A DNA stretch of 64,000 bases, taken from a virus. Lineage: Duplodnaviria > Caudoviricetes. The stretch spans positions 1 to 64,000 of IMG/VR virus record IMGVR_UViG_3300028805_000070, one strand, 5' to 3'. Numbering within the stretch: position 1 is the first letter of the stretch; the number at the start of each line of letters is the position of its first letter. Positions 889-59,877 of the stretch are shown piece after piece. The notes under the pieces were generated by a model, which had not been told where the DNA came from, ran no database searches, and worked only from the letters and a program-made list of their open reading frames with translations. The position numbers and the translations under genes are program-made.

Positions 889-1376
889 TCTCTTCCCTCC
901 TTACACTAATATTATACACAAAATTTTAGAAAAAGTCAAATGTTAGATTGCGCGAAAACGGAGCCTCGCATTTTCACGCCGACGAATTTCCAGCTTGCGG
1001 CGGCTTGTGATATAAAGTTGCGTCGGGTTCCAGCTCCCAGCTTTCCAGCTCGTGGCGGGCCAGCTTTCCGTAGTTGCCAGCTTGTGGAGGCCCCACTCGC
1101 TATCCAGCTTCCAGCTTGTCAGCGTTCCAGCTTTTCTGCGAGGCGATGACGGAGCTTCCAGCGCGAGCTTATGGGAGAAGGGGAGGCGGGCGCGAAGGGC
1201 GAATGATTTGGGGTGGGATGGGTCGAAATGTTCGGAAGCACACGAACGTTTGGGTTGTCAAGAGGGAAATTTAGATGTGATACATCTAATTATTGATGTT
1301 GACTTTTCCTATATTCGTGTTATAATATAGCCAAGAAGTGAAGGAAAACACTGAGAAACCAGAAAGGACTTAGAAA

Positions 1377-2907: not shown

Positions 2908-3141
2908 TTAATCCTCCCATTTGTTCAATTCATATTCTTCAATATGATATTCTGTATAGTCATAATCATCATTACCTTCATAAACAATTTGCGCTTGACT
3001 GTCATCATTCAAAATAACGGGCAAATCAGTACGGAAATTATTATGGTGAATTACTTCACTGATGGCAAGATTCATCGTGGAAAACAATCCACAAGGCCCC
3101 ATTACTTCACCGCTAATACATTCAACAGAGTAGATTTTCAT
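2908..3141 (-). CDS. Hypothetical protein
   Basis: First gene after the palindrome-3217 promoter (TTGACT 3202-3207). Confidence 0.75.
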   Translation of the reverse strand: MKIYSVECISGEVMGPCGLFSTMNLAISEVIHHNNFRTDLPVILNDDSQAQIVYEGNDDYDYTEYHIEEYELNKWED

Positions 3142-3287
3142 TTTCAATCCATCCTTCCCGTTCCTCTTGGAACAATCTTATTATATCAGAATTATAGGAA
3201 AAGTCAACATCATACTTTAGATGTAGTACATCTAATAATTATAAAAATAAAAACGCTCCCTCAGAGGGAGTGTTTTCTTATACTTAG

Positions 3288-3503
3288 TTATTCGGCATCT
3301 TCAATTTCTCTTTCTGTGCGGCGATAATCAGTATAGCCATTTATATAAAAGTCTTTATATACTCTGATAGTATATAGAATCCACTCTTTGGATTCAGAAA
3401 CAACTTCTGTTTCTTCAAGAGGGTCGATTTCCATTTTTACAATATATCCTATTATGGGTATGTCTACTCCACAGAGCTGAACTTTTTGTCCAATCTTATA
3501 CAT
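3288..3503 (-). CDS. Hypothetical protein
   Basis: GTG start overlapping the upstream stop; terminator 3250-3276. Confidence 0.7.
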   Translation of the reverse strand: MYKIGQKVQLCGVDIPIIGYIVKMEIDPLEETEVVSESKEWILYTIRVYKDFYINGYTDYRRTEREIEDAE

Positions 3504-3732
3504 TTTCTTCCTTCTCCTTCTGCATTAATATATTAAGCATATTGACAACCTGATAAGGGTTAATGGTAAAAACGCTTTCGGTTAAGGGGTATTCCTGTGC
3601 AACTTCCAAATTATCAAGCAAGAGCGCAGAAATACCGCCAGGATAATTTTTTGCGTCTTTAATTAATTCTTTTTGCCGTTTCTCGCTGAAATCAAATTCA
3701 AATGTGCCGTGAATGTTGAATTCAAGTTTCAT
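3496..3732 (-). CDS. Hypothetical protein
   Basis: GAAAGGA RBS; promoter under palindrome 3807. Confidence 0.75.
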   Translation of the reverse strand: MKLEFNIHGTFEFDFSEKRQKELIKDAKNYPGGISALLLDNLEVAQEYPLTESVFTINPYQVVNMLNILMQKEKEENV

Positions 3733-15876: not shown

Positions 15877-16160
15877 AAAAAAGAGCGGTTGCCCGCTCCG
15901 GCTGTTTGCCCGCACATTTACGGACTCAAGTTCGTTTTTCCCGAACAGGGCGCCACCCTTTGCATCCATCCTACCAGCCCCGGGGTCCCAGATGCTCCCC
16001 TGTTGTTGCCTCAACATTTAAGCCAGCTCCCAGCTGACCCCAGGCTCCTCACCTGTATACCGCGTAGTAGGACTTCGGCGCGCGGTTGGTTCATCGGGTA
16101 GCGGTCTTACGGACTCTCGTGGGTCGCACCTCTTGGCTTTGCCGCCCCTCCCCTTGGAAC
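15877..16160 (-). ncRNA. Structured non-coding RNA, copy A (~285 nt)
   Basis: Promoter under palindrome 16205, terminator 15877-15898, GC-rich, no RBS-linked ORF; homologous to 17305-17600 with compensatory stem changes. Confidence 0.75.
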
Positions 16161-16233
16161 ATGTATAGATTACCACTTTTCGATGAAAAAAGCAAGAGGG
16201 CAAGTTGGATGTAATACATCCAAATATACGTAA

Positions 16234-16517
16234 TAAAAAAAGAGCCGTTCGGCTCTGTGTCAACAGGGTCCGGGGCATCCTCGTTTCCCGGTTTTGAAGG
16301 TCTTACACGAGCAACTCGCGCTCTCGCAACTGGCTTCTGCCTCCCTGGGGCTTGTTAAGGCGGTGGCCATCCGCCATTCAGTTGTCAAGGTTCAATGCCG
16401 GCCTTGGGGCTCCTGCCCTCAACCGACTGGGTGCTTACCTCCCGCCCATGTGGCCCGCTTCGCACCTGCCCGCGGGCCGGAGGGCCTCAATCCCCATCGG
16501 AATCACCTCCCGTTGAT
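16234..16517 (-). ncRNA. GC-rich structured RNA cassette containing a 20-codon sORF (16435-16497)
   Basis: Promoter under palindrome 16562 (TATACT 16524-16529), terminator 16234-16256, multiple hairpins; GGAGGTG RBS before MGIEALRPAGRCEAGHMGGR. Confidence 0.55.
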
Positions 16518-16613
16518 GGATAGAGTATAGCACTAACCGTCGAAAAGCGCAAGACCTCAATTTGGATGTATTACATCCAATTTATATAGGGCGCATTTAT
16601 GCGCCTTACGCCA

Positions 16614-16769
16614 TTACCGCCAAATGACGCGGTACCACTGCTTTTTCGCCCAATTTTCCGCGCCCTTGCGGGTTTTGAAAAACTTGACGCGCTCGCCCTG
16701 CTGCCCTGCACCCGTCCATTTCCAAATCTCAAAACCGCCGCGCATTTCGTAAATTTCGTAGTACATCAT
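16614..16769 (-). CDS. Small hypothetical protein
   Basis: Single-gene cassette; FKTRKGAENWA motif. Confidence 0.7.
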   Translation of the reverse strand: MMYYEIYEMRGGFEIWKWTGAGQQGERVKFFKTRKGAENWAKKQWYRVIWR

Positions 16770-16896
16770 GTTTCTGTTCCTCCCCTCTCTTGATGCCCTT
16801 ATTATACACCCGGTTACGGGAATTGTCAACGATTATTTTGGATGTAATACATCCAAACGATTTAAAAATGAAATTGCCCGGTTTCGGGCAATTTCG

Positions 16897-17208
16897 TTAG
16901 CAGTAGACAAGCGACATATCTTTCCATTTCAAAATTGAAATTTGCTTATGTTCGCGCCCAATGGCGAGCGCCTGTTTTTTGGTACTAATGCGGAAACTAT
17001 GGTCAATATAGTAAATTCCTTCACTGTACCAAATACCACAATTTCCCTGTAGTTGACGTACTACCTTTATGGCGGCTTCCGCCGTTGTCAATTCATACCC
17101 GTAATCCGCCACCTGATATCCCGTCTTATAGGTAATAGGCTTGCCCGCTTTGAGTGTGAGCCCGTCATTGTTCTGCAACTTCCTCAATGTCCGCACGTTG
17201 ATCATCAT
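16897..17208 (-). CDS. Hypothetical protein
   Basis: G.W...G.YYID.S......A...G....Q.SI..W pattern; GGAG RBS. Confidence 0.75.
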   Translation of the reverse strand: MMINVRTLRKLQNNDGLTLKAGKPITYKTGYQVADYGYELTTAEAAIKVVRQLQGNCGIWYSEGIYYIDHSFRISTKKQALAIGREHKQISILKWKDMSLVYC

Positions 17209-17304
17209 GGTGTCCTCCCTTCTTTGATGGTATAAGTATATCATAAAATGTGCGGACGCGCAAGACTTTAATTTGGATGTAATACATCCAATTATTGCAT
17301 AAGC

Positions 17305-17600
17305 GAAAATTCCTGGTACTACATTCCCCGGAATTTTCTAACCGATTTCAACGGATCCTTTCCGTTTTCCCTACGGCTGACGGGAAGGGGAGGTCTTCAC
17401 GAGATGAATCCCTGCCTGTTTCAGTCCCCTGCAGGTGCTGCCTCGACATTTGAACCAGCTCCCAGCTGATCCCACAGCTCGCCACTGTGTATCCCGCACC
17501 ATCTCGCTCTTTCGGCGTGCGGCCGGTTCATCGCGCGTGGTCTTACAGACTCTCATGGGTCACACCCGCCTTAGGGCTCTGCCCGCGCTCCCCTCGGAAC
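17305..17600 (-). ncRNA. Structured non-coding RNA, copy B (~295 nt)
   Basis: Promoter under palindrome 17645, terminator 17305-17338; paralog of 15877-16160. Confidence 0.75.
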
Positions 17601-17740
17601 AAGTATAGAATATCACTAACAGGGCTATATGTCAACACGGGAAGTTGGATGTATTACATCTAAAAGCGTGTCTTGCTTTTATAGCCTAAATGTGTTATAT
17701 TATAATCACTCCAAAGGGAGGAAGAAAGGATGGTAGAAAC

Positions 17741-20913: not shown

Positions 20914-22188
20914 ATGAAAAAACCATATTCATTAGATTACAACATCGAACGAGACACTGACCGTCTTTAGCTTGTACGTAACATTCTAGACTCTCTAGAG
21001 AAAAACCCATCCGATGCCGAATTAGAACAAATGGCCACCTACATTCTCTACGGCAAAGATGAAAACGGGCAATCTTCCCTACGCCGTGGAGAAGTCTATG
21101 ATAATAAAAAACGCTACAATACTTTCAAAACCTCCGACGACTATGTGCTTTCGTTTGACGAAATAATTGAAAACCCAGCAACCGACGAGCAAGAATTTAG
21201 GAGTGCCTACAAGCGCGACGTATACAAAAAATCTTAGTCCGTCATTAACCGTCCGAAATACGACAAAAAAACTGGCGCCCTTATTGATATTGGAGACGCC
21301 GATATCCCAGGAATGGTAGAACTATGGGAGCGCCTAGACCATCTTGATAAATGGCTTCATATTTTACAAGGCAAACTGCCGCCCGACGAGAACTTCCTTC
21401 TATTTGAGGATGACTATCGCCTATACCGATTGCGCCATAACATCGTGGATATGAAGAGGACCCAATACTACCTTAAGGACGCCTACAAGCCCGCAATTCA
21501 TTTTCAAAAACTAGACCACCCAAAGCCCCAATTCTATGATTGGGACGGGGAGTCCGCATATTGGATTTCGCGCGCCGAATGGGAACGCCGCGTATCCAAG
21601 TCCTATACCCATACAATTTCCACGAATCTTGCTGACTATGAGACTCGCGGCGAGGGCGATAACTTACAAGTAAAGTGGGTTGTGTACTAGCATAATTTTG
21701 ATTGGGAAAATCCCAAACATATCTACCAACTTATGAATAACTACGATGCCCTACGCGAATAGCTTAAGGAGAAGTTAGATACGTATGGGCGCACCCTTAT
21801 ATGGGATATGGAGCGTTATCTTGAAATGACCCCATTAACACCCGTGCGCCGCGCCATTGCCGAACGTGTTCTTCAAAAAATGCCCCGCGAGCAAATCTCC
21901 GAGGAACTTATGTAGGAGTTTGGATTCACCTACAACCCCTTCTACCTAAGCACCCTAATCGCCAATGACATTCCCAAGGAAATTGCGCGAGAAGCTACCC
22001 GCAACCGCCTACTTTGTGAAACCCCAAAAGAGGAACTTAAGGTATGCAAAGGATGCGGCCAAGCCTTACCGCGCCACCCACTCTTTTATACAAAGAATTC
22101 CGGCCGCAAAGATGGCTTCCAATCATATTGTAGACAATGTGAGCGCCAACGCCGCCAGGAAAAAAGGTAGGTGGTAACTGATGGATGA
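20914..22188 (+). CDS. HTH + zinc-finger protein (424 aa with TAG read through)
   Basis: AAGGAGG RBS; track fragments 21031 and 21313 share this frame and are joined by TAG only; C-terminal sigma-region-4-like helices and CKGC...CRQC. Confidence 0.7.
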
Positions 22189-23125
22189 GAAGAAAAGACG
22201 TTGCCTTAGGTGTAAGCAAGATAAGCCCATTGAAGCATTTGTATATACGGCTTCGCGCTTCTTTCCCGCCCATCGTTCCCTCATATGTACTTCTTGCCTT
22301 GAAGCTACCACTAAGCAAGACAATCTGGATGAAGTAGACCGCGTAATGCAATGGCTAGATTTGCCATTTGACCTTGATAAATGGACGCAACTTTATGAGC
22401 AACATAAGGATAGGACATTTACTGCCTACTTCAATCTCCTCTACGACGATAAGTACGCAAAGCGCTCCTGGGGAGAGGAAAATGCGCGATGGGAGCTCGC
22501 GCGAAAAGAGGGCACCATCGATGATGAGATTAAGGTTCTTTCTGAAGCTCGTATGAAGAAATTGAAGAAAGTATGGGGTCCCACTTACAAGCCCGATGAG
22601 CTGGAATGGCTTGAAGATTTCTACAATAAAATTGTAGCAACTCAAAACGTTTCTACTCCAATTTTACAGGAAAAGGCACGCGACTTTTGTGAAATATAGT
22701 GGAATATAAAGAAAGGTTTGCGCGAAGGCCTTGATGTAAAGAAGTTAATGGATGCGGCGGACAATATCGTAAAAGTATATCACTTTGAAGCCTCTAATGC
22801 TAAAAGTGCGGCAGACTTCGAGTCCATTGGAGAGCTTATGGTTTACTATGGTAAGAAAGGCTGGCATCCCAATTGGCATACGGAACCGCAAGATTCTATT
22901 GATTTTATGATGGAAAATATTTAGAATTACTTGAAGCGCCTTGTAATGAATGAAGGCAACTTCGCAGAGTAGGTTGAAGATAAGCGCGCTCGCTATAATA
23001 TGACTGAACGTCTTGAAGAAATTGAGAATGAAAAAGTTGATTTTGACGAGACAGCAGACATCGAATATGAAGGTGATAGTGCTCTTGCGGCCGAACTATA
23101 GGACGAGGGGGGATATGATGAGTGA
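22181..23125 (+). CDS. Zinc-finger protein upstream of terminase, possible small terminase subunit (314 aa, TAG read through)
   Basis: CLRC...CTSC N-terminus; fragments joined by TAG; ends TGA overlapping the terminase start. Confidence 0.6.
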
Positions 23126-24908
23126 AATCCCCGAAGGGACCCTATTGCGCGATGGGGTAGCTATTGAAAAAGGTATTACTCTTACTCGTGAATTCTTAGA
23201 TAGAAATTAGGATTTACTTACAAAATATCTCAACCTCTGGATACTGTATCCCGACTTACTGTTAGATACTATTTAGTTAACCGAAGATGCGCAGCATTTT
23301 CACTTAATGCCTTTCCAGCGCATTGCTCTGAGAGCATCTATGCGCTATAGGTACCATTTTTGGACTGGTACGCGCGCCACATCAAAATCTTTCACGGCAT
23401 ACTTATGCGCGCTAGTCCGTGCTGTCTTATTACCCGGCTCTTGCGTTATGATTGCTTCTGAAGTTAAAGGTACCGTTATTAATATTGCGCGTGATAAATT
23501 TGCTTAGTTCTTCCGCCATTGGCCACTCCTTGAAAAGGAGCTAACAACGCGCACAGAGGATGGCAAAACGGGTATTAAATCTAGTAGCAATTACTACGAA
23601 CTTAATTTTAAAAATGGCAGTCAGATTACAGTAGTATCAAAAGATACTTCTCGTGGATTGCGTGCAACCGCGGCTATATTAGAGGAATGTGCTCTTATCT
23701 CTGAGGAGGCATATACCGAGGTACTATGGCCGCAGCTAAACATTAAACGCCATGAGCCAGATGGTTCTTTAAATGTCGATGAACCTTCTTCACCGCAGAC
23801 TTTCATTACAACCGCAAGTGACCGTACTGTATATATGTATTCGCGTCTTATCGAGATAGCGGTAAATGCTGTACTGCGTCCAAAGGAGTTCTTTTGCTGG
23901 GGCCTTAGTTATGAAATTCCAGTACATTATGGCCTTATAGATAGAGCGACTATGGAAGACCAAAGATATTCTACTTCAGTCAATGAAGATGCGTTCGCGC
24001 GCGAAAACCTTAGTATATGGACAGGTAATAACTCTGATGCGTGGCTAGATTCACGTCGTCTAACTAAGCATCGTTCTTTACTTAAATGCGAACGACACGC
24101 CTATATAAGTGAAGTATGCCCTGATGCTTGGTATGAAATTGGAGTAGACGTTGGTAGATATAAAGCAAATACTGCTATTATGGTTATTAAAGTATTACCG
24201 GGTGATTCACGCTATAAGAAAAATGTAGTATACACGGAAGTTATAAATGGCGCGAACTATATTACAGATTAGGCGCCACGCATTAAAAAATTAATTTAGT
24301 TATATAATCCACGTGAGGTTGTAATTGACGGTAACGGGCCTGGTATTGGTTTAATGGACGCGATGGCGCTTCCTTCTTTTGACGCTAAGACTGGAGAATA
24401 GTTCCCTGCATATTATACTTTTAATAATGAGAACCATTTGCCGCCAGAGCTTAAAATAGAATAGGAGGAACCCGTGCCTGCCTATAATGCAATCTTGTAT
24501 GATATTAAGGCTAGTGCTTCTAATGAGGATGCCATCCATGCGGCCTTTCTAAGCGCAATAAATACTGGCTCTGTTTCCTTTCTCGCGCATGAACGTGTTG
24601 TAAAGGATAAATTGATGAAGACTAAAAAGGGATAGAAAATGACACCTTATGATAGACGTAAATTCTTACTTCCGTATGAAATGACTTCGCGCCTTATGGA
24701 TGAACTAAATAATTTGCGCCTAAAGCCCACTGGGGTTGAAAATAAATTTAAAGTAGAAAGAATTTCTCGTTCAATTGAAAAAGATAGATTTAGCGCCTTG
24801 GAATATAGTTTATATAGAATTAAATATTATGAAGATAAAGAAATTTTTAAAAAAAGGAAAAAAAAGATAAAATAGTATGTGTTCTTCAGTCCTAAAAGTA
24901 GGGGGTGA
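23118..24908 (+). CDS. terL: Terminase large subunit (596 aa, TAG read through)
   Basis: Walker A-like TRATSKS, SRGLRA, Walker B AILEE, nuclease IGVDVG and KDRFSALEY; at least eight in-frame TAGs. Confidence 0.9.
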
Positions 24909-24913
24909 GGTTT

Positions 24914-26443
24914 ATGAATTCTTTTAAGCCGTTTGTAGATTTTGCGGCAAATAACAGAATATATCGAGTTCCTATTAATGAACGTGCTGTTAGTCGCTAT
25001 GGTTCAAATGCACGTACAAATTCTGTAGGGTCACACGATTTTTCTGTAGAAGAAATTGAAGATATTATTCGCACGGGAGACTTAGATTCTCTAAGATAGC
25101 TATCCCGCTACTATTATCGCACTAATAGTGAATACCGCGAAAATATTGATTTTTTAGCCACCTTACCTTTTTATGATACAATTGTCACCCCTATATTTGA
25201 ACAAGGAAAAGGCTCATAGGCTTAGATTATTAAGAGTTTCTATAATGCTTGTGCATTTGTAGATAAACTAGATGTAAAAAATACCTTTACACGTATTACT
25301 AAAGATTGGTTAATTAACGGTATGTATAATGGCATTTTGCGCGAAATTGGGAATAGAATTTCGATTCAAGACCTTCCGCTAGAGTTTTGCCGCACGAGAT
25401 TCAAGGACTATAATAACTTAAACATCCTTGAATTTAACGTAACCTATTTTGAACACAAGTTTTCTGATGAAAAAGAAAGAGCACGTATGCTACTTACATT
25501 TCCAGAAGTAGTGCAAAAAGCGTGGAGAAATTGGAAAGACAAGAAAACAACTGATCCATGGGTTATGATTTCATCCGCCGACGGTGGCATTAACTTTTGC
25601 TTCGCTGATGATCAAACGCCATTACTTATTGCCGCTATACCAAGATTACGTAAGCTTAAGGACGCAGTTGGTCGTGAAGAAACGCGGGATGAAAATGAGC
25701 TATACAAATTACTAATTCAACGCATGCCAATTGATAAAGATGGCGAGTTAGTATTTGAACTCGATGAGGTAGCCGACATTCACGCAGGAGTAGCGAGCAT
25801 GCTCCAAGATTTGGATACTGTAGACGTGTTAACCACTTTCGGGGATACATCGTTAGAGAATCTTCAGGATTCCTCTGCGGCATCACAATCGGCTGATCGT
25901 ATTGAAAAGTATACAAAAAATGCTTGGAACGCTCTAGGGCGTGGTTCTATTCTTTTTAATGCAGAAAATAGCTCTACGCTCGCATATAGTATTAAAAAGG
26001 ATGAAAGTCTTATGAAAAGCTATTTAAACATGTATAGTACGTGGATAAGATTTCAAATCAATTAGAGATTCGTTCGCACCGGATTGACTTTTGATTTTGA
26101 AATCTTGCCCACTACTATGTTTAATATCAAAGACTATTAGAGCATTTATTTCTAGGGCGCCCAGTACGGCTATTCCAAGATGAAAGCAGGTGTAGCAAGT
26201 GGAATTAAGCAGCTTGCACAATTAAGCCTAATGACCTTTGAAAATGATTTCCTCCATATGACCGAAAAGATGATTCCTTTACAATCGTCCTATACCTCTA
26301 GTAATAATGAATCTGGCGGCAATAGTGGCAGCGGAGGAACAAAGAAAACTTCAGTAACTGTGGGTAATCAAGGTGGCCGCCCAGAGTTACCTGACGAGGA
26401 GAAATCTGAGAAAACTCAGGCCAATATTGCGGCCATGGGTTAA
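24914..26443 (+). CDS. Portal protein (509 aa, TAG read through)
   Basis: Position after terL; size; C-terminal PLQSSYT...GGRP tail typical of SPbeta-like portals. Confidence 0.8.
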
Positions 26444-36282: not shown

Positions 36283-39200
36283 ATGGCAACAGAACTTAGG
36301 GTACCAGTAAAACTTGAAGTATTATAGAGTTCAATTGCAGATATAAAATCAACGTTAGCTAATTTGCGGCCGGAGACTACCGTTTGGAAAGAATTATAGA
36401 ATATTTTACGTTCAATGACCAAAGAGGCGGATGGCTTACAAAGCGCTATAAGTAAGCCTTTTAACGCTTAGAAAGATTTTACTTCCGCAGAAAAAGGTAT
36501 AGGTAAAATTGAGGATGCGCTAGAACGCGCTCGCATCGCAATGGGGCGTATAACTTTTTCTGATTTAAAATTGGATGAAAATTAGTCTGCTGCTTTAAAA
36601 GAATTTGAGCGTTAGTTATAGGTTATTGAAGATAAGGCTAGGAATTTTAAAGCAACTTTGAAGGCTGAATTACAAAGTGGCGATAACTGGGGTGATATAT
36701 TAGCTCTTGATCCTAATGCAATCACTTAGTCTTATGATGAAATTGTAAAAAGTATATAGAATAAAGTTAAGTAGATTGAAAGTGAATCAAAGAAAGCGGC
36801 GGAAGCTTTACGTATTGCTACTGAAGAAGCTAATCGCGCGACAGCAAGTAAATAGTTTTTTTCTGCTCAACAATCTTTAAGTACTGAAGGAATGGGTGAA
36901 GAGTGGAATACATTTTTTTAGAATAATAAAAATGGACAATTACAATTTCGCTCAGGACAAAAAAGTGCTTTTTATGAGTGGATGCGTGATAATTTAACTA
37001 TTACGCCAGCTTAGTATGAAGAGATTAAAAATAAAACTATTACTGAAATATAGTAGTGGATTAAAGATTTTGATGTTAATAAAATTATTAATGATGAAAC
37101 AAAAAAGAAACAGACAAAAGATGATGCAACAACACGCGTGGCAAATGTAACAGCAGAAGCATAGAAAGCATAGGTAGTATAGTAGGTTATTGCTGCAAAT
37201 CAAGAAAAAATTACTACTAATAATACTGCTTTAAGCAAAGAAACTGCGGTAGTAACTTCTAATTTAAATGATTATAAAGCTGCGGCAGAAAATGCTGCAC
37301 GAGCTTCACTATAGACTTCTTCTGGTATGCAGAAAGCAAGCAGCGAGTGTACTATGCTTACTAGTGCTTTATAGCGTTCTAACTCAGAATGGCTATAGAT
37401 GGATCGTGCTGCGACTACAATGAATGGATTACGTAATGCCATTCTTAATTTTATGGGTTTTAATTAGATTTTAAATTTAACTAAAACCGCAGTACGTTAG
37501 GCCGCTTAGCACATACAAGAACTTGATACAGTTATGAGTAAGATTGCAATTGTTACTGATATGTCAACTGGTGACTTATGGAAACAAGTTGATGCATATA
37601 GTGATATGGCGCAAACTTATGGTGTATCTATTAAAGGTGCGTATGAAGTATCATAGATTTATTATCAGCAAGGTCTAGAAACCGCTGATGTTTTAACATT
37701 AACTAATGAGACGTTAAAATTAGCAAAGATTTCTGGTCTAGATTATGCAACAACTACTGACTATATGACAACTGCTTTACGTGGATTTAAAATGGAAATG
37801 TCCGAGGCAGGAACTGTCGTAGACGTATATTCTGCTCTTGCTGCAAATACAGCAGTGTCATAGGAAGAATTGGCAGTAGCTATGAGTAAGACTGCTTCTT
37901 CTATGGAATCTGTAGGTTCTACCTTTGAAGAGACATCAGCAATGATTGGTACTATGGTAGCTGTTACTCGTGAATCTGCTACTAATATTGGTAGTGCTAT
38001 GAAGAGTATAGCTAGCCGTTATGGTGAATTGACTAAAGATCCAACTGCATTATTAGATGCTGAAGGCGAAGCTATGTCTTTCAACAAGGTTGATACGGCA
38101 TTACAGTCAGTAGGTATCTCAATGAAAACTGTTGATGGACAATTCCGTGAATTCACAGATGTTATTGTTGAATTAGGTGAAAAATGGGATTAGTTAGATA
38201 GTACGCAGCAACGTTATATTGCTACTTAGTTTGCTGGTAATAGACAACAATCACGTTTCTTAGCATTAGTTAGCAATGTTGATTTATTAAAGTCTAATAT
38301 GGACGTTGCAATGAACAGTGAAGATACTGGTACATTGCAAGCTTTAAAAGCATTAGACTCAATTGAATCTAAAACTGAATAGGTAAAAGTAGCATATTAG
38401 CAATTCTATACGACTCTTGGCGCCGAAAATGTTTGGAAAAGCGCTTTAGATGGATTAAAAGAATATATTAATATGTTAAATGGCTTACCGAAGTTATTTG
38501 ATAAAATACCAATTGGCGCGATCGCAATGGTAGCTAATTTGGTGGATTTAATTAAATTCGCTGGAACTAGTGTTATTAGCGGTGTAGCTGAAATCTGGAA
38601 AAAGTTTTTGCCTGAAAATGCTTAGGTAGATATTGCGGCGAAGAATATTTTGCCTAATGGACAGGCAGAAGCTTAGAAGGCAGGACAAGATGTTACTGCT
38701 GGTATGGCATAGGGCATAAAAGCAGGAGAAGGAGAAGTACGAGCTGCTGGTGTAGCTTTAGGAGAAGTTTCTATTGAAGGCTTACGCGATGGAGCCGGGA
38801 CACATTCTCCTAGTGTGCCAGCAGGTGAAACCGCAGATAACGTCGGCGCAGGAATGATTATTCATCTTGAGGCGGCGGTTGATGCTGTAAAAAATGCTGG
38901 TCGTTCTTTAGGTGAGGCTGCTATTGTTGGCGTTAAAGAAGGTATGCAAAATGTACAAGCTGTAGCGGATTTACTGGTATCATAGCTTGCTACTTTAGCA
39001 CCTGAAATTCAAAGTAAATTTGGTAATTTAAATGATTTTTCTATTGACAATATCCGTCAATTTGTTGAGCGCCCTGAATGGAATAATACTGAACGTGCGG
39101 CTGCTTATACTGCTATAGATGTATAGCGTTCTACATTAGAGGCTAATAATTTAATTAATGATATTAAATTAATTAATGATAAAATCGCAGCATATAGAAA

Positions 39201-42200
39201 TTTAGAGTAGGCGTAGTTAAAAGTTAAAAGTATTGAAGATAAAAATAGTGCAGAGTATAAAGCTGCAAGTTCTGAACGTAATGCTTTGGCTAAAGAATTA
39301 GGAACTTCTTGGAATGTTAATGCTTAGGGAAAAATAAGTGAATTAGAAGCATAGAGAGACTAGTTGATTACTTCAGTGCAAGAAAAGTTAAATGCTGTTT
39401 ATTTTGCAGTCAATTTTTAGTTAGCTAATGCGGAACAATTATAGGGGCAATTATCTGCATTAGGACTTAAGGTTGAAGTTGAACCTGTCATAAAAAGTGC
39501 CGCGGCATCATAGGCAATAGATGAGATTAGAGAAAAAGCCGCGAGTGCTAAAGAGGCTGCTGCAGAAATAATGCCTTCAAAGGCAACATCATATACTCCT
39601 CATGAAGATAGTTTGCCTAAAGCTGATTCTTCACCGACGTTATTTACTATTGGTACACAACAGAATTAGGTTAATCTAATTAATCAACAGATTGATGCTT
39701 TATATAAATTACGAGAAGCAAAATTAGCAGTAGAAAATGCCGGTAATAATTCTAATGAAAAAAGTGCGGCTATAGAAAATTATAAATAGCAAATAGAAGA
39801 GATTAAGTCTATTATTAATGTAGATATGTTTTCTAACGGATTTAATTGGAAAACTAATATTAATGAAATTGATGCTGTTATTGCATAGTATTAGGAACGT
39901 TTATCTAACTTTGTAGTTAAGCCTACTGTTGAAATAGAACCTGGCGCGGAATAGTTAGGCTTTGATTTAACTTTATTAGGTGTCCCACAAGTTCAAGTAG
40001 AAGATTCTGCTAAGCAAGAAGCGGTAGAGCAAGTTAAAACTGAAATGCAAGAAGCTGTACAAGGCGAATAGCTAGAAATGCAGTTTGATGCAGAGTATGA
40101 AGATGTATATGAGTAGATGCAACTTGCACAAAAGCTTCAAGATTTTGAAGAAAGCCGTATTACTACTGCTTAGGAATATAAACGAGAATAGCAAAGAATT
40201 AAAGAAGAGTTGCTAGAACAACGAGATATTTAGGATAGGATAGCTCGTAGTAAATAGGTTAATGCAGCATCTAGCGCTGCGGCATAGAATCTTGATTTTG
40301 GAAAACTTGATAATGAAATAATTGAATCTGAAGAGCGTTAGCAAAATGCTATTAGAACAACTATTGATACTATAAAAGAAAAAATACAAGCAATGCAGAA
40401 TCAGGAATTAAGTCGCTCTTTATCTGGAATTGGTTCTGCAATTTCTACAATTTCCAGTGTTTTAGATAAATCTTCTGCGGGCGGCCGCACATTTGCTGGC
40501 GTAATGACTGCTGTAGGTGGAACAATTAAAGTAGTAAGCGGATTATTAAGCAAGAATCCTTGGATGGCAGTTGCTACAGGAATTATTACGATTATTAACG
40601 GTATTTCTTTAGCAATAGAAGATGATGCAGAGAGACTAGAAAGATTAACTAAGGAAGCTGAAGAAGCCAGTAATGAAGCTAAAAAGACTAAGGCAAATTT
40701 AAATATCTTAGAAGCGGGAAAAACAAAATTAGAAGAATTAGAAAAGAAACGTTATGATAGTGCTGAAGCCGCGGAAGAATATTAGAGTAAAGTAGAAGAA
40801 TTAGCTAGTGCTTTTCCACAATTAATTAGCGGTTTTGATGAAGCGGGTAATGCTATTATTGAAACTAGTAATATGGAAGATGTTCTTACTGCTGCACGTG
40901 AGTAGAGCGCGGCGGCAACCTTAGCCGCAGCGGAAGCTGAAAAGAAGAAATCAGCGGAAGAACGTAAACAAAATTAGGAAATATTAGCTGGAAATGTTTC
41001 TGATGCTATTAATAGTCTAGATACTTTATAGGATGTTATAGATTCATAGAAGGCTGGAGAAGCTCCAGGTATACCAGCAGACTATACTTATAACCCATCA
41101 TAGAATAAAGATTTGACCAGTGCTTTAGGCGCTATATTTAATAATGATATTGTAGCAGCTAATATGGGTAGTCTTAATAGTATTAGTTTTGAGGGTATAT
41201 TTACAGATTTATTATCTACAGGAATGCTAGCCGATAGTTATAAAAAGAACATTGGCTTCATGAATATTTTAACATAGGCTGGTTTTAATTTAGATCTTTT
41301 ATCTCAAGCGGCAAACACTCTTACTTGGGAAGATTTTGAGACAGAAGAAGAAAATCTTGCATAGAATGCTGAAAACCTTTAGCAATTTATTTTAGCTTAT
41401 TACCAATTATTAAAAGATGCATCTAAATTAGGTTCCGCAGATAGAGAAATGCTAAATTTCCTTAATGAAAATTTAGATATAGAAACTGGTTTAGCAGATT
41501 TTAAAGACGATTTTAATGCTAAACCGACTGTCGAAGCGCTATCTAAACTATAGGAAGCTATTAAAGAAAATAATATAGAAGACATTTCTAAATATTAGTT
41601 AGAGGCATAGCAAGAATTTTAGAAATTAAAAAATAATACTGATTACACTAGTGTATATAAAGACTCTTTTGAACAATTATCAGAGTTGATGGAATCTATT
41701 ACATCTAATGCTAATAATTATCTTCAAGCGGCTATTCAAGATAATGCTAATGCCATTGCAGTAGTTAATGGTATTATTCGAAATCGTAATCCTAATAGTG
41801 ATTTTATTAATGATAAGAGTGGTATTATTAGTTTAATTTCTGGTACCTTTGGTAGACGATGGTAGTAGCAATATGTAGAAGCTGAAGGTAATTATAGTCA
41901 AGAAGATTTTGAAGATAAAAATAATGTAGATTTAAATGCCGCGGTAGAAGCTTCCGAACAATTTTGGCAGGATTTAGTCAATAGCGGTTCTGAAAGAAAA
42001 GATAAATTTGTTAAAATGCTTTCTGATATTAGTAAGTATCGAGAGTCTGATTTTACACAATTTTCGGATATTACAGATGAAGAATCATGGAACTAGGTAT
42101 ATGACTTAATAAAAGAAAATACTGCTGAAAGAATAAAAGGAATTTAGAATAGTTTAACAAATTTTTATTTTAAAAATGTCGTTCCTGCATTTAATAGCCG

Positions 42201-45200
42201 TAGTTCTAATGCTAATCTAACCTGGCGTACAGCAGCAGCGACAGCTGAAACTGCAACCGAAAGTCAATATTTAAAAGATATTTATCTTTAGTATGCGCAA
42301 TTAAATTAGGCAGGTTTAACAGGACGAGCTTCTGACTATATGACTGCTTCGTTAGAAATTTATAATTAGATACTTCCTCTTGATGGTGATTTACGAACTG
42401 CTATTTGGTCTAATATAGAAAAGAATGGTTTAAAAACTAAAGAACAAATTCAAAAAGTGATTCAAGCTGTGTAGAATAATGACACAGGTGATGATGACTT
42501 TTTAGTAGGATTATTAGAAAATTTATCTAAAACTATTTCTGATAATATTATTCTTGCCGTATAGGCTTCAAGTAGTGCTTTTGTTGAAGGTTGGTCTGAT
42601 GATAGTAAAACTATTAAGAAATTAAGTTCAGGACTAGATCTTAGTGAAGTTGAAGGACTTATTAATAGTGAAGCTGGTCAAAACGCAGGACTAACAATGA
42701 GCAGCTTTGTTTCAGATGGTGAAAAACTGATACTAAAAGCTAATGAAATGGATAGGTATTTAACGGAATATTTTGCAACGCAATAGGAAACCTATAATGC
42801 TCGTTATATTGAGTTAGAAAATGCGGCAAAATAGCTAGGGATTACTTCTACTAGTGCACACATCACGCAAACAAAAGAATCAGATTTTAAGGAAGAAGAT
42901 TTATTAGCAATTGATGCAATTTTAGGGAGTCAAGATTCAATTAGTAATTATGTAGATGAAAAAACTGGAGAAATTGATACTAAAGGATTAGCTACGGCTT
43001 TATTAAAAGCGTACTAGAGCGGCGAAACTGCATTAGCGAATTATTAGGATTATATTAATTGGGCACAAGCACAAGTTGAAACTTCGAGATAGTGGGCTGA
43101 AGGAAATTATTCTTCTTTAGATGAATTAGCGCATGGTAAAGGAAATGGTAATAAAGCTGTATTAAATTTTGCAAAAGCATCAGCTAGAAATTAGCTATTG
43201 TTAAGTTCAAAAGACAATCCTGATTTACTCAGTGCAGTTGGGCAAGTGCAATCTACTGCTTCATCTTTAATCTCCGATGCATTGTCTAAAGGTTTAAATA
43301 ATCTAAGTGCTTTAGATTATAAAGCCTTACCAATTGAATTAGATTTTTCAGGCTCATATGTAGAATTCCTTAATCGCTATGCTACTTATACCGGGAAAAC
43401 CGTTGATGAAATTAATGCCTTGTATGCTCAAGCCTTAGAAAAGGATTAGGAACAAGTTGCCAGCTCTTTAATCAAGGATTTTACCTTTACTTCTGCTGAT
43501 ACTTTCATGGCATCTACTTCTGCCTTACAGGGACTAGCAGATGCATATGATGTTGCGTTAGAAACTCTTATCTCTAAGTTAGGATTTAATGAAGCGACAG
43601 AGCAGTATTTCGGCAACATTTCTGACCTTGGAATTGATTTAACTAAAATTAATAACTATCAATAGATAGTATAGGATAGCATTGTAGACTATATTAATTC
43701 TATTAATATTACTGATTTCCTTAATGCGACTTCAAGCGCAGAACGGGTAGCGACTGGAACTAAGTTAGCTAGTGAAATCTAGAACTATCTTGATATGACC
43801 GGTCAAACGGTTGTAGAATTATTTACTGGTCAATCTGAAGCAATAATACAGTAGTAGATCGCTTCTACTAAAGCTTTTATGAAAGCTGTACCTTCTAAGT
43901 CGATGAGTGAATCTCAAAAGCGTGGCGCAGATTTAGCCGCCTTAGAAGAGCAATTACGTCAATTGTAGTCTTATACAATGGACGATGTATTAGCTATTCT
44001 TGAAGCCGGTGGTGAAGAAGCCGTTGCCTTACTTAAAAGGTTAAAGGGCGACAATGTCACAACTTCCGAACTCGAAGCTGCCTTTAATAACAGTCAAATT
44101 GTAAAACTTCGTACTGCAATGTCTGACCTAGAAAAGGGCGTGGGTGAAACCGTAACTGGACTTGCGATGAATATTATGCAAGTAACTGATGGTTTTGAAC
44201 TTGCCGAACTAGACGATGGTAGCGCAGTTATTACCGCAGTTGGCGATATGGTTTAGGCTTATGCTAATCTCTATGCGGCGATGGAGAAGAATACTGATCA
44301 TACTACTGGTGATTTAAATAGCGCATATGCAAAATTAATTACTCAATATGCTCAATCTTCAAATGATTTAAAAGACTTATTATCCAATGCTGCGACAGGA
44401 ATTTCTGCTGATACTTTTGGAACTATAATGGAACATTATGGTTTAGTTATGAAAGAAGTATTAGAAAGTGCGGAAGGCATCGTTATTGATTAGTTTGGTA
44501 ATATTATTATTTAGGATTTTAAAGCTTTTGAAAACTGGATGAATGATAATGCCAATGTTGAATGGAATAGTAATGATCCAGCATTTAAATCACTTTATAA
44601 TTCTTATATAGATTCAAAAGTAGAAATATTAAATCGTCCTATTACAGATGCTTAGACTGCGGCGGAATAGCTGAATAATATTTTAAACGCTAAAAAGGGT
44701 GAAGCTGTTAATATTTCTTATCTTGATGAATTTGATAAAGCTGATGAAAAAACAAAAGAAGTATTTGAAGCTATATTGTAGAAATATGGAGCTGCTTATG
44801 AAGATGGCATTTTAATTATAAGCAATGAGACACAAATTCCTAATTTAGTGGGAGAAATTGGCCATTTAGCGCAAGAAGCGGGAATTATTATACCAGAATA
44901 GTTAGCAGAGTTAGAAGATGCTATTGTGGATTTATTAGATAATATTGTATCTTTATTATCTAATGGAGTAAACGGAAGTTTAAGTCATAAGGACGCTCTT
45001 ACAATATCTAATTGGTATAAGGATACTCTTGCTTAGCGGAAAGATTATACTGATTTTATTAAGGAATTAGATTTTTCTGATACTGCTGAAGGATTGCAAT
45101 TAACTGAAACTTCCTTAGCAAATATTTATGAATTATTAAAGGGTATTAATGCAGAGAAAGCTGATGCATTTTTAGAAAATATTATTAGTAGCAAAGAAAG

Positions 45201-48200
45201 TTATTAGACTTTAACTGGAGCATTACGTGAATTTAATGATTCGACTAATATTACAAATACCGCGGCTAGATTTAGTAGATCTGGTTATAATGGTACCGTT
45301 GACGTTAATTATAATAAGCGTCCACATATAATAAATGCAGATGGCTCTATTTCTACTGTTGAATCTTTATCTAGTGGTAATGGTGAGGTAGAAGTATTGG
45401 TTACGCCTATTCTTCCAGATGGTTCTAGATTAAGTGAAGATAGTGCAGCAAAATATGCTGATATGTTTGCCAATAAAGAAATTGATTTAACAACAAAGTT
45501 AGTAGGAGAAGATGGACAAGAACTAGAATATAGTTTTAAAGATATCTATATGGGCACATATGATACAGTCGAAGCTGCTAACGAAGTTGCAGAATCTTTA
45601 CATGAATGGCACGAAGCGATATCTAATGCAAATACTGAATTAAGTAAAACTTCTAGTATGATGCAAGATATAGTTTAGAAAGCTATGGTAAATCCGGATT
45701 CTATGAATTTTATGTCTAATAAATTGCCAGATGATATACAAACAGCTGTTAATGCGTGGGAAAATGCTTCTAAAGCAATTCGCACTTTAACTACAGCATA
45801 GAAAAAGGGCTATATGGGAGTCTAGGATTTCTATAATATTGTCACTACCGCATCTTCATTAATGGAAGCAGCAGGAAAAACGTTTGAAGTTGCTGAGATG
45901 AATGCGAGCGAATTAATGTTAAAAGGCGCTCAAAATATAAAGATAGTAGATGGTCAATTAACAGTGGATTTATCTTCCGCTGGTATGAACATTGTTGGTG
46001 ATGTTAATTCGCTTAAAGAAAATATGACAGATGGCGTTCAAGAGCTTGCTAAAGCAGAAATAGCAATTATTGATGCTGAAATTTAGGTATTAGAAATATT
46101 GGCAGCTATGGAGCAACTAGGGGACATGGATGTCGATGTTAATAGTAATGGTATTAATTTTGAGGTGGGCGACATATTTGACCCCGAAGGTCCTTATGGC
46201 TTTAGTTAGGATATGAAGGATTACACTACAGCACTTTTAGATATGTGTAAGACTAATAAGGAATTAGAATCTGCATTACAATAGGTAAAAATAAATAATA
46301 AAACTCTATATGAATTATTACAAGCTGATGCTAATACATGGATTGAAACTTTTGGTAGTAAAGAAAATGTATCTAAATTCTGGTAGAATTTTAGCGAAGG
46401 ATTAGAAGGCTGGGATTTAGAAGGTAATTTACAAGAGCAGGTTTTAAATTTCTTTAAAGGGTTAAATTCAGAATTAACTGTTGACTTAGGCGATAGTGGA
46501 GTTTTTCATATTGGTGTTAATGGCGCTGTTTGGTCTATAGATTTTACTAATGAGTAGCTAATGAAGGACGCTGAAGCTGCGGCTAAAAAATTTGATTTGC
46601 TTCATACAGGCGAAGATATTAAAGATAAAATAAAAGAAATTTTAGCAAAATAGCAAACTGAGGGCACATTAGACTTAGGAGAAACTTTTACATTACATGT
46701 CGCAAGTGGAACTATTACTTTAGTCACAGATGATGATGGAAATACAAGATATAAAGTTGGAAATAATACTTATTCGGATGCACAGTTAGCATCGGCTGTT
46801 GCGGATTTAACAAAGATAGGCGCGACAATAACTGATGATATTGATTTAAGTACAGACCCCCAATTTAGTTCGCTTGAAAATGGGACATTAAATGGAAAGT
46901 TAAAAATTGGTAGCTTTGAAGTAGAGGTTGAAAGCGCTGGTGAAGGAGTTACTTATACAAAAGATGGGTATACGGCAAATAGCTTAGATGACTTATATGC
47001 AAAATTATATTTAGAAAAATAGGATGCGACACAAGACAGCATTACTGATATTTTAGAATATAAAAAATGGCAAGTAAAACAAGGAATATTAGTTGAAACT
47101 ATTTTTGAAGTAAATGGCCAAGAGAGTGATCCTAATAAAAATGAAAATTTACGCAAAGCAATATAGGATTATTTAACTGGTAATAAGCCAATTACAAAAA
47201 AAGATATAGATATTGGAGAAAATGGCTCTACTGTTAAATTAGAAGAGGGTATAACCTTAACTATTCCTGAAAATAAAGTTCAACTGAACTTTGAGAAAGA
47301 TGGCTCTTTAACACAAAAATCTGCGGAACAATTACAATCTTACTTAAGAGAGATTACAGGAGTAGATTTAGGACTAAAAGATACAATTTCTCAAGCCATT
47401 ACTGAAGCATTTACCAATATCTCTTCTCAATTGACACTTCTTAATGCAACTGAACCTACCGGCATCACCGCCTGGTCTGGAGCTTTGTCTTCTATGGCTG
47501 ATGCAATTTCTAAAACAAGTGAAGCTGTAAAGAACTTAATTGCCGCATTAGAAAAATTAGGTTAGCTAAATGCGCCAACAGGTTCTACTCCGACTACCTT
47601 TACTGCTGATGGAGATTAGGCGCAAGAGGAAGCAGAAAAAACCAAACAGCAAATTAATGATATTCCAGATAAGACTGAAACTGAAATAACCGCAGATGGC
47701 TCTCAAGCACAGGCGGAAGCTGATGAGACAAAAGGAAAGTTGGATGCAATTCCAATAGATATTGATATTGATATCACCGCATCTGATAATGCTTCAGATG
47801 CCATTGATAAAATTGCCGAAGCAATTGAAAACCTTAAAGATAAAACTGTTAATGTTACTGTTAAAGAAACTATAGCAAAGGCCAAAGGAAATTCTAATAA
47901 TGATAATACTAGTGGTAGCGATAATAGCAAGCCTAATTTCGTTAAGGCTACTGGTAATGTTGGCTATGCTCGTGCATCCGGTACTTTAATGGGTGAACTT
48001 GGTCCAGAAATTTATGTTCAAAATGGGCGATATTATGTTGCAGGTCAAAATGGCCCAGAATTTGTAGATTTAGCTGAGGACGCTATTGTCTTCAATCATC
48101 TCCAAACCGAGCAACTTCTAAAGAAGGGCATGTCCTCTACTCGCGGGCGTGCAGTTACTAATGAGCGCACCGCAGTTGCATTCGCGCAAGGTAATGTTAA

Positions 48201-58200: not shown

Positions 58201-59877
58201 ATAAGCGGTGATAATGTCGATATTCCTGTTCCTTAGGCTAAACAAAATGCTAACATAATAGGCGCTGTCTTTTCTTCTTAGAATATAGGATTTGCTACCA
58301 GAAAAGGAACTTATCGTAATTTAATCGCAATGGATGAAACTGGTATTACACTAGGCCAAGCTCGGGTGAGTGGAAATGCTTATGCTTTACATGGCAGTGA
58401 CGAGACTTCAGAATCTATGGTAAATGATAACATTGAGGGCTCGTATGTTAAAATTGGTGTTGATGGTATTAAATTAGGCTCATTAGCAAATATGTATATT
58501 AATACTAATAATTTTAAATTACAGACCAAAGCTGATGAATCTACAGGAGAGCATACCATTCTTGCTGTAGGGACTCATTTTAATAATGTGTCTGGTAGTA
58601 CTGTTAATAACATTTTTGGCGCGGATACTGAGAATTCTGTGAAAGCGGGATTAGTATTTAATGCGAATGGTTTATTTATTAAAGGAACTGTATATGCAGA
58701 TGCGGGACAGTTTACAGGGACGGTCTATGCCACAAATGGCAGCTTTAGTGGTTCTATTTTTGCAGCGCAAGCGAGTAAAATTGCCGGTTTCTATATTGGA
58801 AATACATATATGGCTTCTATATTTAATAATAACAGTAATGATTATCATAAAAATAATTTAAGCAGTACTTATAGAGGAGTATATATTGGAACAGATGGAA
58901 TTAATATTAGTAGTAATTATGATTCTAACAGTTCTACACCTGAGAATACTATCTATGGGGATATTTTATTTAAAATAGATATTCCACAACGTATTTTAAC
59001 TTTTGGAAACTACCAAAAAACTTCAAAGCCAACTTTATTAACTGTAAATTAGGGTACTTCAACAGTTTCATTACATGGTATTTTTATATTAGACCCAGAC
59101 AAAGTGGCAGTTGCAGATGGGTATGCCTCTTTATCGATTCACTCCGATGGCGATCCATATTGTATATATACATCCGGTGCATATAGCAGATCAACAGACC
59201 ACTATCATATAGAAGATTATACTTTTGGTATTAATCATATTGGAGAATTATTTTGTTCTACATTAACTACAGGTGGAATAAGCGCATATTCTTTAAGTGT
59301 CCGGTCTGCTTCTTTTTATATTGATAATGTGTATGGGTTAAGATGTTTTAATGATAAATTTAGTGTTGATGTAAATGGTAATATTACTGCTAGTGATATT
59401 ACTGTTAGTAATATTACCGCTAATGCTATTACTGCTAATGATAATCTTATCGTAGGAGACGTATCTAATCTTGAAATGTCACCTAGTTCCGGAAACTCCT
59501 CTAGTTCCGGAAGCTCATCTAGTTCTGGGAACACCTCTAGTTTTACCAATGGATCGATTATTGCCGAAACAACAATTGCTGCAGGGGCATCAATTGCTGC
59601 AGGAGCATCCATTCGCGCGGGAACTTCAATTCGTGCAGGAACTTCTATAGCTTGCAATAATTTTTTATATATTAATGGGACAGATACTACTGGTACTAAT
59701 ACAACAAATATTGCAAGAATTGTTTTTGGAAGTAATGATACTGATTATCCTCGTCTCGTATCAAGAAAACGTGGTGGGAAATGGTAGTTGGTTTGGTTAT
59801 ACGCCTCTGGCAAAGAAACTATTCTCGCTTCAGAAGATGATTCTCAAACTACTTGGCAACCAAGGTCGTCAACCTAA
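52282..59877 (+). CDS. Large tail-associated/host-recognition protein, Tal/spike-like (~2531 aa, TAG read through)
   Basis: Fragments share one frame; SNLYNLTQ.IAETF and I.TK.YV hub motifs; beta-rich C-terminus; TAG-TAG-TAG at 54244-54252. Confidence 0.75.

Follow-up and report, generated by a model that had tools for sequence, protein, structure and literature searches.

We analyzed a 64,000-nt window (positions 1 to 64,000 of IMG/VR record IMGVR_UViG_3300028805_000070, an uncultured rumen phage of the Caudoviricetes, Duplodnaviria) and in particular two cassettes on its minus strand, hereafter copy A (15877-16160, about 284 nt) and copy B (about 17301-17600, about 300 nt, with an uncertain 3' end). 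With a confidence of about 0.8, which applies to identity and fold and not to mechanism, we propose that copies A and B are paralogous genes for free-standing structured non-coding RNAs (ncRNAs) of one large, undescribed, phage-restricted family. Positions are those of the window unless another locus is named; other family loci carry L-numbers (for example L004). Over the 5' 160 nt, 125 of 160 positions are identical between the copies (78%), and this part aligned with a score of 74, compared to -2.2 +/- 5.2 for shuffled sequences. The 3' 125-135 nt were unalignable (score -0.5; shuffles -8.6 +/- 4.4); copy A carries a type A 3' domain, like L004 and L022, and copy B a type B domain, which is also present in L001, L030, L059 and L136. 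The four ordered blocks reported in a preliminary description of this DNA were all recovered in both copies, in the same order. The same description had noticed no open reading frame (ORF) linked to a ribosome-binding site (RBS) in either cassette, in agreement with our results. A 61-codon ATG frame of copy B opens within the invariant core of the RNA, copy A has ACG in place of this ATG with a stop 9 codons on, and many 1-2-nt indels separate the copies; no reading frame conserved between the two was found.

To define the family, we searched with a 22-nt core, GACCCAYGAGAGUCNGUAAGAC, which is present exactly in both window copies. The exact core string was detected in 4 viral contigs. With two positions freed, the 22-nt core was found in 11 viral contigs and in at least 119 metagenome stretches, mostly from cow, sheep and yak rumen. 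The core also occurred in 6 contigs of Clostridia/Bacillota metagenome-assembled genomes (MAGs) and in one Treponema MAG. None of 150 other genomes from the order of one carrier MAG contained the RNA, and the six copies of the carrier MAG lie on six separate contigs, some of them very short, so that the RNA looks restricted to phages: it has been seen so far in phage-like contigs only, not in bacterial chromosomes. Two covariance models were built, R1 and, after the core had been rebuilt, R2. Copy A scored 47 bits with R1 and 68.6 bits (E 7e-14) with R2, and copy B scored 48 bits and 65.5 bits (E 4e-13), respectively. The R2 matches of both copies span model positions 1-102 and are the sole two matches in the 133-kb genome; each of the large viral records (95-149 kb) has a single copy.

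We then compared these RNAs with known families. Using Rfam 15 (4227 models, including ROOL, GOLLD, raiA, riboswitches, ribozymes, phage packaging RNA (pRNA), T-box, 6S, signal recognition particle (SRP) RNA, RNase P and transfer-messenger RNA (tmRNA)), we observed no hit in the window at the gathering threshold. At E<=10, the window gave unrelated low-score noise with no match on the conserved fold, the sole overlap being a 12-bit L2-leader match in the 3' tail of copy B, and nothing fell on the RNA in 14 other diverse members. A blastn search against 50,697 phage records returned no match, and the core motif was not found in the searched literature, a search outside which lay the unnamed candidates of a 10,000-candidate phage RNA survey (PMC10690425). 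ARAGORN detected no transfer RNA (tRNA) or tmRNA in the window, and the tRNA hits in other loci adjoin the RNA and do not lie on it. The absence of an Rfam 15 match, with more than 130 homologous loci showing heavy covariation, supports the earlier suggestion of an uncatalogued class of structured phage ncRNA.

The fold was derived from about 100 distinct members. In the 5' domain, the order from 5' to 3' is P1, a kink-turn (k-turn), P2, a CAAA junction, P3, G-N, the P3b hairpin GAC[CCAYGAGA]GUC and a junction, NGUAAGAC, leading back to P2. P1 is a short stem that forms the non-canonical (NC) arm of the k-turn. Of 88 sequences, 87 and 86 have the 5' GA of the k-turn; on the other strand, N-A-W-G-A is near-invariant, with a 3-nt bulge followed by GA (GAUGA in both window copies). 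At sequence level, the predicted motif contains a C-stem, a 3-nt bulge, tandem sheared G.A/A.G pairs and an NC stem, and the flanking P1 and P2 covary. P2 is compensated throughout, with GCGCG/CGCGC in copy B, GGG..GCG/CGC..CCC in copy A, GGGAA/UUCCC in L004 and CCC/GGG in L011, and P3 is a variable hairpin that tolerates insertions. About 20 unpaired nucleotides (CAAA, GAC[CCAYGAGA]GUC and the NGUAAGAC junction) are invariant in 93-96 of the 97 distinct sequences. P3b is paired in 100% of cells, with variants compensated independently, GCC...GGC in L065, GGC...GCC in L118:6548 and AGC...GCU in L081:1064; since these three members compensate there, we assigned the core helix to GAC/GUC. They contradict the P3a helix of a first core model, in which GUC paired with the GAC after NGUAA, and P3a was replaced by P3b. 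In alignment A7, made with R2 and comprising 97 distinct rows, pairing was observed in 90.5% of cells, a percentage inflated by the fitting of the alignment to the model, and both partners vary in 24 of the 26 nested pairs. Covariation scored 0.332, compared to 0.095 with shuffled controls and no more than 0.054 with slid partners, and R1 gave similar results; the contrast with the slid partners and the count of pair types remain large in this fitted alignment.

In copy A, the 5' domain (16088-16153, minus strand) comprises the NC stem GG 16153-16152 with CC 16089-16088, the k-turn GA 16150-16149 opposite the GAU bulge and GA at 16095-16091 (placed from column frequencies), P2 (16148-16143 with 16103-16096), the (G)CAAA junction 16142-16138 and P3 (GCC 16137-16135 with GGU 16130-16128), both helices being supported by family covariation. 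Its invariant core (16104-16127) consists of GC, the P3b strands GAC 16125-16123 and GUC 16114-16112 around the loop CCACGAGA, and the core junction CGUAAGAC (16111-16104). The corresponding domain of copy B (17525-17593, minus strand) contains the NC stem GG 17593-17592 with CC 17526-17525, the k-turn GA 17590-17589 opposite the GAU bulge and GA at 17532-17528, P2 (GCGCG 17588-17584 with CGCGC 17537-17533), a CAGA junction at 17581-17578 and P3 (GCCC 17577-17574 with GGGU 17567-17564). The copy B core (17540-17563) reads GU, P3b GAC 17561-17559 and GUC 17550-17548 around the loop CCAUGAGA, then the junction UGUAAGAC (17547-17540). A further stem, GGC-AAA-GCC versus GGGC-AGA-GCCC, had been proposed in this region and found no support here, because its letters are the end of P2 (GG), the CAAA junction and the 5' strand of P3 (GCC(C), which pairs with GG(G)U); L009, which reads GGCAACCG...CGG, is an example against it.

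Downstream of P1, the RNA forms a 3' knot. It starts with P4 (CCGCNN...NNGCGG), whose inner two pairs covary; the CCGCG/CGCGG versus CCGCA/TGCGG stem of the preliminary description is this helix, and its covariation extends family-wide. The first 2-4 nt of the P4 loop pair with nucleotides after the conserved junction KAUAUAAAUGUGA (pseudoknot PK0), as GG/CC in 67 members, GCC/GGC in 25 and GGCG/CGCC in one. The pairing partner of the last 7-9 nt of the same loop lies 60-110 nt downstream (PK1), with compensated versions as different as GUCCUGUU/GGCAGGAC, GUCAUGCU/GGCAUGAU, GCCACGUU/GGCGUGGC and GCCGAAU/AUUCGGC; the window copies pair as GUCCUACU/GGUAGGAU (copy A) and GCGAGAUG/CAUCUCG(U) (copy B). 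Over 30 loop classes, the mean PK1 duplex energy was -10.4 kcal/mol for cognate strands and -7.1 kcal/mol for non-cognate strands (Mann-Whitney p = 6e-12). These energies were computed on a bounded region in place of a naive longest-helix search (200 nt, G-U allowed), by which cognate (7.0) and non-cognate (6.1) strands were barely separated. Finally, the loop of P6 pairs with nucleotides just past the PK1 partner (PK2). In a MAFFT alignment of 26 type C members, made without reference to the structure, PK2 was 97.7% paired with changes on both sides in 5 of 5 pairs, and PK1 was 99% paired. L001 provides a compensated version of both, CGAGAUU/GAUCUCG for PK1 and GAGAGG/CCUCUC for PK2.

In copy A, P4 pairs CCGCG 16085-16081 with CGCGG 16064-16060 (hairpin 16060-16085, minus strand), and its loop holds the 5' strands of PK0 (GCC 16079-16077) and PK1 (GUCCUACU, 16073-16066). 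The junction UUAAAUGUUGA (16021-16011) is followed by the PK0 3' strand GGC (16010-16008) and by P6, read from the sequence (GGGG 16000-15997 with CCCC 15985-15982), whose loop carries GCAUC 15995-15991, pairing with GAUGC 15966-15962 as PK2; the PK1 3' strand GGUAGGAU lies at 15975-15968. Compensated versions of this P6/PK region (15962-16000) are present in L004, L022 and L003. In copy B, P4 pairs CCGCAC 17522-17517 with GUGCGG 17499-17494 (minus strand), and the 5' strands of PK0 (GCC) and PK1 (GCGAGAUG) are at 17516-17514 and 17507-17500. Its 3' knot (17386-17453) contains the junction UCAAAUGUCGA, then the PK0 3' strand GGC 17442-17440, P6 (CCUG 17435-17432 with CAGG 17418-17415, also read from the sequence), the PK1 3' strand CAUCUCG(U) 17406-17399 and PK2 (AGGGGA 17430-17425 in the P6 loop with UCCCCU 17391-17386). 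Each window copy ends with a 3' extension of 60-85 nt containing further hairpins: 15877-15961 in copy A, including GUUCG-GGAAAAA-CGAAC at 15946-15930, which is compensated in L004 and L022, and 17305-17385 in copy B, with small hairpins and a terminal AU-rich hairpin.

Two additional hairpins, P4a and P4b, are inserted between AUA and AAAUGU in both window copies. The CAGG..CCTG versus CACAG..CTGTG stem previously pointed out proved to be a genuine hairpin, P4a (CAGG-UGAGGAG-CCUG 16055-16041 in copy A, CACAG-UGGCGAG-CUGUG 17489-17473 in copy B), but only in some members: P4a and P4b are absent in most (for example L003 and L118) and are compensated in L004, L001, L102 and L080. P4b, at 16038-16022 and 17470-17454 on the minus strand, has the sequence UCAGCUGGGAGCUGG in both copies (16022-16038, 17454-17470), and it differs in their closest relatives elsewhere, which suggests an exchange between the two paralogues inside this genome.

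We next considered the transcription signals. The minus strand of the first 19.6 kb of the window is an array of small transcription units, each with a sigma-70-type promoter. A 19-bp palindrome, TTRGATGTAWTACATCYAA, stands before each unit, immediately 5' of its promoter, with 35 copies between 1900 and 19575 (0 expected by chance); its form TTAGATG...CATCTAA prevails below about 14 kb and TTGGATG...CATCCAA above. The copy B promoter (17607-17635, minus strand; TTGACA 17635-17630, a 17-nt spacer and a TG-extended TATTCT 17612-17607) was flagged by the promoter scan, and its palindrome lies at 17645-17663. That of copy A (16167-16195, minus strand; a weak -35, TTGCTT 16195-16190, a 17-nt spacer and the TG-extended -10 TGgTAATCT 16175-16167) was not flagged but is homologous to it position by position, with a palindrome 9 bp upstream (16205-16223). 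Copy A ends in an intrinsic terminator detected by the terminator scan (minus strand, stem 15899-15882 and T-run to 15877). The terminal hairpin of copy B, a 9-bp AU-rich stem in the minimum free energy fold (17338-17330 with 17313-17305, minus strand), has a poor T tail and was not flagged, making it a weak terminator at best. The earlier view that each cassette has its own promoter and terminator holds for both promoters and for the copy A terminator, but not convincingly for the 3' end of copy B.

Data from the wider family also favored a self-contained cassette. A -35/-10 pair was found in 75 of 97 distinct members, and in 69 of these a gap of 4-10 nt separates the -10 from the first model position; therefore, the fold begins at the 5' end of the predicted transcript. 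Most members are followed by an A/T-rich spacer and a new promoter. The carrier phages differ in promoter and operator design, with spacer-overlapping palindromes in L004 and L001 and, in L028, an array of like design (3000-3600) using another palindrome, TAGGTGTTTAACACCTA; the RNA gene therefore appears to move as a unit between lineages. Early expression, as proposed in the preliminary description, is inferred from the promoter type, from the location of the array opposite the late genes and from its use of the standard code. A leader hairpin, GGG-AAGGAAAA-CCC plus CAAACC, occurs before many cassettes of the window and also precedes family members in L050, L075, L090 and L018. A third cassette of the array (16235-16525, minus strand) also encodes a structured RNA and is no small-ORF gene: in the L022 homologue, a 1-nt deletion disrupts its 20-codon frame but spares the hairpin GGCCCGC...GCGGGCC. 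This cassette was unmatched by R1, R2 and Rfam.

The domains of the RNA occur in various combinations. The junction stands on its own in L028, L111, L044/L082/L117, L088 and L011-type loci. In L022, the first 110 nt or so of the third-cassette RNA are fused before a family member under one promoter, and in L010 the whole RNA is a leader running into an RBS and an 80-codon ORF. Of 136 loci, 13 have tRNAs on the same strand. A tRNA-Glu comes after the RNA and one extra hairpin in L080, with no promoter in between, and in L137 a tRNA-like element and a tRNA-Lys directly follow the RNA. This L137 element (1136-1208) scored 29.7 bits with the Rfam tRNA model and was missed by ARAGORN; its T-arm and acceptor stem are perfect and its anticodon loop is oversized. 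The different combinations of the 5' junction, 3' knot and add-on domains across members offer a natural example of RNA domain shuffling. An add-on module containing CCUCUGAAACGCACUUCUGAAGAAAGCGUCCCUCAAG was observed after type B and some other members, before a terminator or tRNA (L030 3600-3665 and L080 2640-2685; also L136, L106, L115, L002 and L014), and may be a further conserved RNA domain.

Regarding function, we tentatively favor, at clearly less than even odds, a trans-acting role in which the RNA binds a protein or serves as its decoy. The RNA would be made early and abundantly; the k-turn would fold the 5' domain back onto a rigid, knotted, nuclease-resistant 3' scaffold, presenting an invariant surface of junction and loop that a host or phage factor could recognize. 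This surface may be the working part because it is the only one retained in minimal forms. Phage RNAs have a precedent in anti-defence: Blower and colleagues reportedly described in 2012 phage pseudo-ToxI RNAs that mimic ToxI and neutralise the abortive-infection toxin ToxN. ToxI consists of tandem 36-nt units that its toxin processes. The present family resembles pseudo-ToxI as a phage-encoded pseudoknotted RNA, but it is a single fold of 190-300 nt with no repeat array or toxin gene nearby. Several observations weigh against these readings of the fold and its role. Besides the model-fitted pairing percentage given above, the k-turn is swapped for other internal loops in L005-type and L003-type subtypes, and neither an L7Ae-family (k-turn-binding) protein nor a reverse transcriptase was found in the 75%-complete phage genome; since it is replaced in some subtypes, an architectural role of the k-turn is more likely than one as a fixed protein site. 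A ribozyme core or an aptamer for a small molecule would account equally well for the invariant unpaired nucleotides. In L028 and L111, the three-way junction is a leader ending in a stem and U-tract before small ORFs, which hints at a role in cis. In metatranscriptomes, array parts were present as assembled contigs in two sheep runs of one study, possibly derived from DNA; one 2.8-kb metatranscriptome contig carries a relative of copy B.

Time and again, intricately folded RNAs of bacteria and phages in which many unpaired nucleotides are invariant have been identified as ribozymes or riboswitches and, in recent work, as RNA-only cages. The computed evidence separates none of four possibilities, namely protein decoy, aptamer, assembly and ribozyme. 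A small-molecule aptamer, whose junction would bind a metabolite or signalling nucleotide, with stand-alone RNAs acting as sponges and short leaders as attenuators, seems unlikely. Some 20 unpaired nucleotides are invariant and gathered in a compact junction, the helices around them varying freely; this is aptamer-like, and so is the design. In the SAM-I aptamer, a standard k-turn bends a helix and thereby brings distant elements together, a pseudoknot ties a loop to the junction and the junction nucleotides are invariant; our family has the same k-turn composition (C-stem, 3-nt bulge and tandem G.A/A.G, down to the CCCGAUGAAACC sequence) and a loop-junction pseudoknot. This is a likeness of design, not of membership: junction sequences and helix order differ and no riboswitch model of Rfam 15, SAM included, matched. 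The junction-only forms of L028 and L111, closed by a stem and U-tract directly before ORFs, point the same way, but the ORFs after L028, L111 and L010 encode unrelated small proteins, so that no regulon indicates a ligand, and most members stand alone without an expression platform, a terminator or the next promoter following instead. We also regard as improbable an RNA-only or tRNA-linked assembly, in which the RNA would multimerize, maybe through intermolecular pairing of its "pseudoknot" strands, and act on or alongside phage tRNAs. Such a reading draws on ROOL (RF03087) and GOLLD, which occur in prophages and near tRNAs and are of rumen or gut origin (PMC5737381), and which form homo-oligomeric complexes (PMC12286853). 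Habitat, phage association, tRNA nearness (the 13 loci above, with L080 and L137, and 20 tRNAs in this phage), several pseudoknots, multistem junctions and orphan function are common to all three. Yet no sequence or covariance-model similarity links the family to ROOL or GOLLD, its RNA is one third to half their size (190-300 nt vs 580-800 nt), its core is a k-turn and three-way junction with GAC[CCAYGAGA]GUC, it is known in phage-like contigs only so far, and the tRNAs of this genome are more than 15 kb from both copies.

A self-cleaving or otherwise catalytic RNA is quite unlikely in our view. The complex knotted fold with an invariant core is typical of ribozymes, and HDV-like (hepatitis delta virus-like) ribozymes are said, in work of Kienbeck and colleagues from 2024, to adjoin tRNAs in recoded gut phages. 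However, no self-cleaving family (hammerhead, twister, pistol, hatchet, HDV-like) matched the window or the 14 other members in Rfam at E<=10, there is no multimeric or rolling-circle context, and by inspection the junction strand lengths misfit a hammerhead core. For a cis-acting leader, attenuator or 5' stabiliser of the neighboring cassette gene, the arrangement of L010, the leaders of L028 and L111 and the absence of a convincing copy B terminator can be cited; this role is nevertheless very unlikely, as copy A ends in a strong terminator with a full promoter next, and the usual spacer and new promoter of other members lead to downstream genes that are not conserved. Extremely improbable is a guide or antisense RNA acting through a variable segment, or a small protein-coding gene, although the segments diverge strongly between the paralogues and copy B has its 61-codon frame. 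The stretches that had been taken for the variable segment of a guide scaffold are the two strands of intramolecular pseudoknots, mutually complementary and covarying inside each RNA; since, in addition, a comparison with the phage sequence gave only chance antisense matches of 13-15 nt elsewhere in the 133-kb genome, a guide role is unlikely, and no nuclease partner gene is consistently adjacent. The coding version meets the broken frame of copy A and the common 1-2-nt indels.

The phi29-family pRNA (RF00044) is likewise encoded by phages and driven by an early promoter, and it too combines a three-way junction with loop pairings that covary. Its model did not match, and the carriers of our family, of 95-177 kb, rely on a large terminase for packaging (its gene and that of the portal occupy 23013-26443 in the window); therefore, a phi29-type motor RNA is not expected. 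By-eye likenesses to RNase P CR-I (GAAAGUC), the sarcin-ricin loop (ACGAGAG), the L11-binding GTPase centre, the UGUAAU turn of SRP Alu, T-box stem I and the hammerhead were considered and set aside, with no model support or topology match. Returning to the binding or decoy reading, a bolder version, which we hold to be a long shot, is that the RNA floods the cell at the start of infection and that its junction, as a high-affinity binding site, sequesters a host component, for example an immune signalling nucleotide or a translation or termination factor. Host-type early promoters, paralogous copies and the presence of the RNA in every carrier that could be checked for TAG recoding are consistent with it. 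If true, removal of a translation or termination factor would help a TAG-recoded phage to read its own late genes, and this would be the first sponge of such a kind made of RNA and not of protein. More broadly, this self-contained early gene of big TAG-recoded rumen phages, sometimes fused to tRNAs, may have a part in host takeover or translation management. The family belongs among the phage-borne orphan structured RNAs, of interest to RNA biologists, and being large (well over 100 loci), compact (190-300 nt) and strongly constrained by its k-turn, three-way junction and three pseudoknots, it is unusually tractable for structure and biochemistry.

Finally, we examined the coding context. The late and structural genes of the window (20914-63979, both strands) are open only when TAG is read as sense, as illustrated by two frames at 36283-50553 (4756 codons, 137 TAGs) and 52282-59877 (2531 codons, 44 TAGs). 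PHROGs assigned a sigma-factor-like gene (20914-22188), the terminase (23013-24908) and the portal (24905-26443). TAG was sense in 4 of 5 other large carriers checked, that is, in all 4 with a detectable portal, whose portal homologues contain 1-8 in-frame TAGs; therefore, all checkable carriers belong to a TAG-recoded clade. The association of the RNA with TAG recoding may simply reflect shared ancestry. In short loci, the gain in open frame was uninformative on recoding, as removal of any stop inflates frames and these loci are early tiny-gene regions. The 20 tRNAs of this phage lie at 118-132 kb of its 75%-complete genome, and ARAGORN found no CUA anticodon among them. A tRNA-like element after a family member in L031 (about 1172-1250, minus strand) has CUA within an 8-nt anticodon loop and could be an unusual amber suppressor.

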